A DNA stretch of 63,887 bases, counting the filler, from Globobulimina sp. (lineage: Eukaryota), in NCBI GenBank assembly GCA_003354225.1. It is 45 parts of 45 records of this genome, joined end to end, with 100 filler letters (N's around TTAATTAATTAA, not from the genome) between each part and the next. Parts side by side here need not be neighbours in the genome. Positions count along the whole stretch, not along the records: positions 44,091 to 45,412 come from PIVH01018691.1; 44 more parts are not named here. One strand, 5' to 3'. Below, one piece after another: positions 3,184 through 45,412 of this stretch (position 1 is its first letter; each line of letters begins with the position of its first letter). Made by a program: the position numbers and the translations under genes. The notes beneath the pieces are model-generated. The model was not told the DNA's origin, searched no databases, and saw only the letters and a program-made list of their open reading frames with translations.

Positions 3184-4169
3184 ATGTCGGAGCTGAGTAT
3201 TAAAAAAGGAGATATTGTACTTATTAATACAAAAGATCATTTCATTGGAGTTGTTCGTTACATTGGTACTGTCGAGAATCTATCAAAGAGCAATTTTGAT
3301 AATTATATTGGAATTGAAATTAAATTCAAACGCAATCCACAGTCATATGGTACAAGCAATGGAAGGCCGTATTTTATCACTTCAAACAATAATGCTTTAT
3401 TCGTCAAACAAGACAGTATTATCCGAAAATTTCCTCCCTTAGAATTATTACAATTAATTCCAACCGACATCATAAACACAAGTTTATTCCCTAAAATTAC
3501 AGATATCCCTCAAACCAAAACAGTTAAATGTGATATATCATCAACATATATGTTATGTGATTGATCAACAATTAAATATCATACCGTATCCAATATATAG
3601 GACGAAGGCGATAGCAAAGAAACGGATTTATATCGTTTACAAAGACAATTAAGTTTGACTATGAACGAAAATGAAGTCACTACGTTGCTCGCTTTTTGTC
3701 AAAATGAAGGTTATGATGAATTAGAAACTGTGCAATGCGATATCGATGAATATGATATTAAAGAGAATTCGTCGATAATTGTTGATCACATGAAACAAGA
3801 ATTTGATTGGAATGACACAACGCAACAACAGTTTGTTCATAATATCAGCAAAGCATTGGGCAATGCTGATGCTCGAGCCACTGTATCCTGCATTGTACCA
3901 ACATCAGATCCTCGAATTCCAAGCACACAGAAACCGCCACTTCCTTCCCCTTCGAATTCCCCTTCCCAGACACCGCCACATCTCCCAACAATTTATGATT
4001 TTATAATCCCTGCTTCCCTCTTACAACAACACCACCATCAAAACGCACGCGATATCGATATTATTATTGCATGTTTCGAACGAAATGAAATACCCAATCA
4101 ACAGACACATAAATTGCGCAAATTCTTTGGGGATAATAATGTCTGTACATTTGATCAATTACAAAACAG
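3184..4169 (+). CDS. CAP-Gly domain protein, spliced (acceptor ~3600), partial
   Basis: GVVRYIG...YIGIEI...GTSNGRPYF...ALFVK CAP-Gly pattern; second exon has an acidic EGYDELETVQCDI motif. Confidence 0.65.
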
Positions 4170-44090: not shown

Positions 44091-45136
44091 AATGTTGCTG
44101 GCTTGGAAATTGAAGGGTGTTCTATGGGCGGCTCCAAAATTTCCTCGAACACGTTGGTACGGATGCGCAAATGTTCTGGGGTTTTCGTACACAAGTCTAC
44201 CAGGACATATCCATAAGGTTTTCTTGCCTCTCGCTCATAAGCTGAAACTAGGGATCTTTGTTTTCCAACTTGCGATCCCAAAGTAGCGATCTGTCGAGCC
44301 ATTCGAGGTGATTTGAGCAGGAAGAAGTAGGCTGTATTTGCTGATATGATTCTGCTGCTAGGCCATGGACCAAAGATAAAATGCAAGATCAGCACGATAC
44401 TACAATTTTTATGACGCGCTACAGTGAAAATGTGCGCCATTTCTTTGCTGCTGGCTGAAGAAATCGAATTATCGTCGACGATTATCAGTGTTTGACCTCC
44501 CTCTGGATCAGCCAAAGCATCCAGGTCTGCCTCTGTGACCACTTCTCCTTTGATAAAATCGCATTTTATTCCCTCGAGTGTTAGTTGTTTCTTTAATTCA
44601 GTGTAACTGTCCTGGTAACCTAAATTTATTGTTATGTGTAACATAGTAATAGTTCACATTTCTAGAACTCACAGTTATAGAAGAAAAAGATACGAGTCGG
44701 CACTGGATTGTATATTTTGCTGGCATTCTGTAGACTTTTCAGCAAAAGTGTTGTTTTTCCCTGAAACAAGTTATTGTGGTATGTTTTGTGAATTATCTAC
44801 TAAACATACACTCTGACTGGCTCCAGCATAAATGAAGTTGTGTGGCAGTTGAATACGTTTGTCGAATTCTCCCATCAGGGAATCATGCTTTATGGGGATG
44901 TTATGGTAATTTTCTGTGGTCATAGCCCTCAATGGTTGTACCAAATCAGGATTATCTTCGTGGTTTTGGTGGTATTTTTCCAAGTGTCTCTTCAAACTGT
45001 CTTTTCTATTTGAACAAAATTTGCAATGACTGCATACAGATTGTGAACTTGGCATGTGAACAAGCATATGCCGCTTCAGATTGCTAAGGCTATTAAAGAT
45101 AGCCCCACAATATCGGCAACCAAAAACCTGAGCCAT
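44091..45136 (-). CDS. C2H2 zinc finger + Polinton/Maverick-type packaging ATPase; exons 45136-44810, 44760-44673, 44619-44091
   Basis: Splicing gives GASQS/GKTT Walker A; LIIVDD Walker B; ARHKNCSIV; ISANTAY; PYGYVLVD...LRIRTNVF. Confidence 0.85.
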
Positions 45137-45201
45137 TGAACAGACCAACAACAACTCATCAGCTGTACAAACGCTAAAAGTGACATGCCAGTCGAAATAC
45201 T

Positions 45202-45412
45202 ATCCTTATATGTGGATCAATGGTCAACTTGCATGTGCTGCTCCACATATATGTGGATCAGGAGTCAACTTGCATGTGCTGCTCCACATATATGTGGATC
45301 ATAAGCATACAAATCCACATATATGTGGATCAGGAGTCAACTAGCATCAGCTGCTCCACATATATGTGGATCAGAAATCAACTTGTATCAGCTGCTCTAC
45401 ACATATGTGGAT
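45202..45412. repeat. Array of TCCACATATATGTGGA palindromes (4 perfect, 2 imperfect; 41/31-nt period)
   Basis: Perfect copies start at 45242, 45283, 45314 and 45355. Confidence 0.92.

Follow-up and report, generated by a model that had tools for sequence, protein, structure and literature searches.

To our knowledge, it is an open question how Polintons and related elements single out their own DNA to be packaged. Polintons/Mavericks (adintoviruses, Eupolintoviridae) carry an A32-like ATPase of the FtsK-HerA type, with a Walker A motif GxxxSGKT, a Walker B motif of the form hhhhDD and an ARH motif. Their core genes are described as intronless in vertebrates and Caenorhabditis, and virions have yet to be seen for animal Mavericks, according to excerpts of PMC8097293 (both points) and 10.1101/2022.07.12.499685 (the introns). 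Eupolintoviral elements of dinoflagellates do contain introns; an excerpt of PMC12166617 describes these as young introner (transposon) insertions. In the adenovirus IVa2/A-repeat domain system, the ATPase IVa2, which is needed for packaging, binds repeats beside the left terminal repeat, and it also binds promoter elements (PMC4404914, in part); it acts with L4-22K on AT-rich repeats. No zinc-finger ATPase appears in the portions available of PMC8097293, 10.1101/2022.07.12.499685, 10.1101/2023.08.22.554363, PMC8502044 and 10.64898/2026.10.13.758929. A search of the Polinton, Maverick, adintovirus and Rep_trans literature, with supplements and the 2024 review PMC11426020 outside its scope, found no prior description of a finger-ATPase fusion or of its array.

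The ATPase described here shares the Walker A, Walker B and ARH motifs of Polintons/Mavericks, and related copies link it to major and minor capsid-like genes. It differs from these elements in three respects. Firstly, it has two N-terminal C2H2 fingers and a palindrome array that is their predicted cognate. Secondly, core genes of the finger clade carry predicted spliceosomal introns; intronless core genes, as described for the Mavericks of vertebrates and Caenorhabditis, are not a trait of this family. Thirdly, neither an AGT end nor a 6-bp target duplication is seen on finger-ATPase contigs (all of 4 kb or less); T-shaped hairpins are found in some copies instead.

The window analysed is a stretch of 63,887 nucleotides made up of 45 unrelated contigs with lengths around 1.3 kb, joined through N spacers and taken from a mixed assembly of 70 Mb and 48,370 contigs. 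The gene lies on a single whole contig, positions 44091-45412 (1,322 bp, GC 41%, CpG observed/expected 0.54). Since the contigs are unrelated, open reading frames (ORFs) elsewhere in the window are irrelevant to it. The initial annotation proposed that removal of two GT-AG introns joins the exons in one frame, and the introns are where it placed them (Table 1); the joined frame runs without a stop for 314 codons up to the contig end. It had overlooked that the gene continues past this end: P0030, a 95%-identical relative, extends for about 120 further amino acids. It also lacked the palindrome array just 5' of the gene. The contig stops inside this array, so the capsid gene and the ends of this particular element are unseen.

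Table 1. Features of the finger-ATPase contig, in window positions
Feature	Position	Strand	Description
Exon 1	44810..45136	-	327 nt; runs from the start codon through two C2H2 fingers and a linker to the beginning of Walker A (GASQS)
Finger 1	45056..45118	-	Recognition helix SLSNLKR; predicted target GAT
Finger 2	44969..45034	-	Recognition helix RKDSLKR; predicted target GTG
Predicted intron 1	44761..44809	-	49 nt, phase 0, GTATGT..TTTCAG; within Walker A
Exon 2	44673..44760	-	88 nt; opens with GKTT of Walker A
Predicted intron 2	44620..44672	-	53 nt, phase 1, GTGAGT..ATTTAG
Exon 3	44091..44619	-	529+ nt, truncated by contig end; Walker B, ARH, PYGYVLVD, LRIRTN
Walker B LIIVDD	44488-44471	-	In exon 3
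ARH motif	44419-44411	-	In exon 3
Palindrome array	45241..45412		18-bp palindromes, half-sites GTGGAT/GTGGAG flanking a 6-bp AT spacer; truncated by contig end
Palindrome starts	45241, 45282, 45313, 45354, plus degenerate 45395		Spacing 41, 31, 41, 41
Further degenerate palindrome	near 45199-45216		Read by eye

The fusion of C2H2 fingers to a Polinton-type ATPase, as first annotated, is borne out. Exon 1 scores 35.2 bits against the zf-C2H2 profile over two stretches (cut-off 25.2), and the fingers fit the pattern C-x2-C-x12-H-x3/4-H with a recognition helix. Exon 3 alone matches Pox_A32 weakly, at 16 bits and under the cut-off of 22.8; an intron-free relative, L011, passes it with 27.3 bits. 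Walker A, Walker B and the ARH motif are conserved, and a PDB sequence search with the ATPase gave nothing significant. In a quick tree of 82 last-exon stretches, which included no cellular outgroup, the 13 finger-clade rows fall on one branch (SH-aLRT 97); the clade is nested in a larger group that also contains a finger-less sister clade and is separate from the canonical Maverick-like ATPases. By sequence, it belongs with the A32-type ATPases and is probably of Polinton descent; the element as a whole is at most a candidate Polinton.

The finger-ATPase is not confined to one contig. Exon 1 has 34 matches in the assembly, 22 of which belong to the finger-ATPase family; the other 12 are weaker and were left out of the analysis, giving a family of at least 22 contigs. 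Exon 3 has 33 matches in the assembly. In public collections its protein relatives number 29 of near length plus two longer ones, none usefully named. Metagenome contigs provide five related loci, each of 2.5 kb or less, including four with the same layout (L029-L032); no relatives were found among the viral_contigs and genome_contigs collections. Single N-terminal finger-like motifs are present on other Maverick-type ATPases (P0073, P0091, P0094, P0101, P0118), which suggests that such ATPases have captured fingers more than once.

The intron within Walker A agrees with the relatives: in the intron-free L011 this motif is contiguous (GTTQSGKT). Junctions were read in 15 related loci, and in 11 of them both introns lie at identical codons. 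Three of the other four have a single intron one codon upstream (by eye) and no second intron; the fourth is L011. All 22 introns of the 11 loci have GT..AG boundaries and measure 46-66 nt, and 17 are not multiples of three; the donor is GTAAGT in 14 and the acceptor TTTCAG in seven. Because the positions are fixed, the boundaries uniform and the lengths mostly out of frame, these introns are more than a product of chance. Intron cores are about 50% identical to those of the window copy and exon 2 is 71% identical; across copies, the codon differences in exon 2 comprise 96 that are synonymous and 94 that are non-synonymous, and no stop occurs. Splicing by the spliceosome is strongly implied by these patterns. 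Like the dinoflagellate elements, these are Polinton-like viral elements with introns; unlike introners, the intron cores are unrelated between copies while the positions are fixed.

The source may be an amplified sample, and the frame could be a product of decay or an amplification artefact with introns that are never spliced. This is very improbable given the 22 uniform boundaries at fixed codons in 11 diverged copies. Artefact is also hard to reconcile with intron-free relatives, namely L011 and P0044, an intron-free two-finger ATPase (Walker A GATQSGKT) on a separate tree branch. In addition, the same layout recurs in other metagenomes (L029-L032), and an exact 181-nt piece across intron 2 is present in a marine metagenome run of a second study. 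Of four runs compared, all consisting of contigs, two did not cover the gene, and none had a junction corresponding to either intron. The helices of P0044, RRDSLKR and RKDVLDR, give predicted GTG GTG sites.

The finger-less sister clade also has Walker A introns (L010:1502-1554, L012:524-573, L013:267-315), one codon upstream of the finger-clade intron. This near-coincidence has two possible explanations, sliding or independent gains. An overlap of L010 and L128 (97% over 262 nt) joins the ATPase of the sister clade to a basic core ORF, capsid and integrase, as in Polintons. Integrase or protease is present on sister or canonical contigs (L128, L015, L129), and pPolB has 17 matches in the assembly, with some polymerase genes split by introns. 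Short introns break the protein-primed polymerase genes (L057, L059, L065, L130) and major capsid genes (L043, L047, L128) of several elements in the assembly. Two canonical or Maverick-like contigs carry further ORFs identified by eye: L018 has what are presumably a Bcl-2-like ORF and a histone H3-like ORF (3-278 and 556-900), and L017:3258-3861 is presumably a NADAR/YbiA-like ORF.

Capsid-like genes accompany the finger-ATPase. A 444-aa capsid-like ORF has 24 matches in the assembly and a 128-aa minor-capsid-like ORF has 12. The finger-ATPase stands head-to-head with the major capsid gene on L014 and L021 and with the minor capsid gene on L127; overlaps of non-identical copies suggest that all three genes are linked in varying order. 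The finger-clade capsid-like ORFs are 21-24% identical to canonical capsids, one canonical member of which matches DJR-like_dom, and PF21738 occurs in 15% of one cluster of atlas neighbours. The finger clade's own capsid matched nothing in Pfam or PDB; it is a candidate capsid on the strength of the canonical alignment and the atlas neighbours. With these adjoining genes and the conserved intron positions, the original proposal of an intronised virus-like element holds. The search that it proposed, for the wider Polinton gene set on linked contigs, gave adjoining capsid-like genes and, on L014, inverted ends; tblastn found no polymerase, integrase or protease on the finger-ATPase contigs, all of 4 kb or less.

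The inverted ends of L014 are 119 nt long and identical, and were considered as the terminal inverted repeats of a two-gene mini-element. This reading is weakened by the same 3' segment preceding the minor capsid gene in L039/L141, and further by the varying gene order and the failure to find any outward contig. A repeated 3' segment with a terminal AATAAA-like signal is common to capsid and ATPase genes (L014:1-175 and 3902-4036, L004, L039, L035, L132).

The initial annotation also considered a domesticated viral motor. In such a case a host gene family would have co-opted the motor as a sequence-specific DNA translocase and amplified it with its binding sites. Conserved introns of host type would suit this history, as would the several copies in repeat-rich non-coding DNA, and described Maverick core genes are intron-free. 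However, the capsid and polymerase genes of related elements in this assembly carry introns too, so introns are no marker of domestication here. Linkage to capsid genes in varying order, hairpin ends, gene-free array elements and decayed copies that lack arrays (L109, L111, L126) likewise speak against it. Domestication is thus quite improbable, and a single-gene motor does not match a family of many diverged copies, some of them decayed, that is tied to capsid genes and terminal structures.

Arrays of 18-bp palindromes lie 120-640 bp upstream of finger 1. Both fingers could be parsed in 21 of the 23 loci tried, half-sites were called without regard to the fingers, and a locus was scored if its half-site was seen at least three times (11 of 21 loci). 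The strict code applied was R6=G, N6=A, R-1=G, N3=A, D3=C and S/T3=T or C; these are textbook recognition rules. All 58 scored positions in the 11 loci fit it, although the loci are related and the code was drawn up after the sites had been seen. The permutation p value is 1e-5 for all 11 loci, 12/40,320 (3e-4) for eight loci after three near-duplicates were dropped, and 1/120 with one locus for each of the five distinct sites. Under a looser code 65 of 66 positions fit; L022 misses one base.

Fingers and sites change together. The window copy pairs its helices RKDSLKR and SLSNLKR with the half-site GTG GAT, and at least four concerted changes go in the predicted direction. Finger-2 position 3 changes from S to N with GTG to GAG (L029, L127 and L107, half-site GAG GAT), and finger-2 position 6 changes from R to N with GTG to ATG (L022, RSGTLKN, half-site ATG GAG). 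Finger-1 position 3 changes from N to D with GAT to GCG (L031 and L101, half-site GTG GCG), and finger-1 position -1 changes to R with GAT to GAG (L021, RQDNYDR, half-site GTG GAG). Selected fingers provide analogues: RSDSLTR-GTG, RSDNLTR-GAG, RSDELTR-GCG and RSDILKN-ATG (PMC1920264, Table 1).

Ten parsed loci were not scored. Three are decayed and four have short or array-free upstream DNA. L009 and L117 have asymmetric GAG sites that agree with finger 2 by eye; L008 is a partial misfit, with GTG GCG predicted and GTG GCA seen. Two arrays found later, outside the test, agree on finger 2: the GTG sites of L170/L173 go with L032 (RKDSLKR) and the GAG sites of L172 with L023/L108 (RKDNLKR), both pairings resting on overlapping, non-identical copies. 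A two-site pattern search of the assembly gave 62 matches against 0 for the reversed control; seven new contigs were taken from among the two-site matches listed. Given this agreement, the fingers very probably bind the palindromes of their own element.

Site spacings (n=56) all lie near 31, 41, 52, 62 or 104 bp, with a best period of 10.3 bp. Since sites at whole-turn spacing share one DNA face, engagement by a multivalent ring is conceivable. The match of finger residues to upstream palindromes, copy by copy, makes it likely that the motor selects its own element's DNA by a readable code. On balance, the finger-ATPase is probably the Polinton-derived packaging motor of a virus-like element, with fingers that select the element's DNA through its own palindrome array. 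The gene would be transcribed and spliced in the host nucleus. Each 18-bp palindrome would take two finger pairs, and sites three, four or five helical turns apart on one face of the DNA would let several subunits of the ATPase ring engage together. The loaded ring would then dock on a capsid encoded by the major and minor capsid genes next to it and pump the array-bearing DNA in. Co-divergence of fingers and sites would give each subfamily a separate packaging address.

By analogy, adenovirus IVa2 is the nearest working model: it is a packaging ATPase with repeated cis sites near a genome end, as the finger-ATPase would be. In contrast to IVa2, the finger-ATPase would owe its specificity to eukaryotic C2H2 fingers that are fused to it and act on phased palindromes, and this specificity would vary between copies by the finger code. 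Binding to the array may, in addition, autoregulate the adjacent promoter, in keeping with the dual role of IVa2.

The array sits directly 5' of the presumed promoter of the gene, a position that would suit an operator equally well. The fingers could therefore bind it as an operator or origin organiser, regulating divergent capsid and ATPase promoters or holding a hairpin end for replication, with packaging selection not the point. This is possible, if rather unlikely. It draws on the location of the arrays upstream of finger 1 and between divergent genes, on their position beside T-hairpins in the manner of iterons beside an origin, and on the initial identification of IVa2 as a promoter-binding factor (PMC4404914, in part). 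However, the fingers are fused to a motor with conserved catalytic motifs, and some arrays lie 3' of genes with no promoter seen nearby (L169, L170, L172). The two roles are not mutually exclusive.

Terminal structures adjoin several arrays. L107 has the order T-shaped hairpin with 71-bp arms, AT-rich repeats, array and gene. L149 contains the L107 hairpin with its two small arms swapped in order, so that T-hairpins occur in two orientations relative to the array, as do the T-shaped terminal repeats of AAV. L170 and L172 overlap sequence downstream of finger-ATPase copies, and each consists of an array followed by a different T-hairpin. Of nine segments folded, four adopt a clean T shape (z -9.7 to -17.4), three form hairpins that are partial or of another kind, and the remaining two lack a T shape. 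In L172 and L171 a simple tandem repeat comes after the hairpin, and other flanks are repeat-rich; this suits integration, with amplification chimeras as the alternative.

L149 and L151 are compound contigs that carry no gene, and in them arrays of two finger types adjoin hairpins or what remains of hairpins; L149 has three end-like modules in tandem, bearing GAG and GTG arrays. Both are candidate non-autonomous satellites. Gene-free arrays beside hairpins are what would be expected of a cis signal that is parasitised.

A possible replication gene lies on L169 (C3263), where a 764-aa ORF (349-2643) precedes an array of GAG palindromes and hairpins rich in GC. Its motifs xxD, YxK and LxRxE resemble, by eye, the Rep_trans list in an excerpt of PMC5714925, and it stands beside an array. 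Unlike Rep_trans initiators, the protein matched nothing in Pfam (including PF02486) or PDB; matches in PHROGs and plasmid collections were at chance level. Four relatives are found in the assembly on short contigs without an array, and no contig was found with both an L169-type ORF and a finger-ATPase. The link between the two consists of shared arrays and end segments that are 74-93% identical. A broader proposal is accordingly put forward tentatively and as rather doubtful: an undescribed class of eukaryotic virus-like elements may have kept the Polinton capsid and packaging module while swapping protein-primed replication for T-hairpin ends that a Rep_trans-type nickase resolves, perhaps with the parts distributed over separate segments or partner elements. 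Every piece would carry a palindrome packaging address read by zinc fingers; this address would co-diverge from one subfamily to the next, and gene-free satellites would hijack it.

With regard to the host of the elements, the dominant eukaryote of the assembly looks foraminiferan. There are 116 actin matches, which we take to be a foraminiferan trait, and similar nitric-oxide-reductase-like genes of 36-48% GC (L067, L069-L075), presumably the pattern of denitrifying foraminifera. The ten COX1 matches include none that reads as animal; one is nearest to 688-aa COX1 chains, which we take to be ciliate and hence a sign of a ciliate-like COX1 in the assembly, and the others are nitric-oxide-reductase-like. 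The initial annotation regarded the introns as nematode-like; a nematode source finds no backing in these COX1 matches. Searches of the assembly for SL1 and for zf-C4 (nuclear receptors) gave 0 matches, with controls that also matched nowhere, and a stricter first look for SSU rRNA gave 0, so controls for these searches are weak or missing. CpG observed/expected is 0.62 in the finger clade versus 0.96 at actin loci, which hints at a difference in host or in methylation state.

A motor with a sequence-predictable target inside its own element would make packaging specificity directly testable. The finger-ATPase family would also be a natural series in which fingers and their sites evolve together. 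The conservation of spliceosomal introns within a core gene of the virion would point to long nuclear residence with continued selection. If the link between hairpins and the Rep-like protein is true, it would represent a new replication mode for the eukaryotic PRD1-adenovirus lineage.
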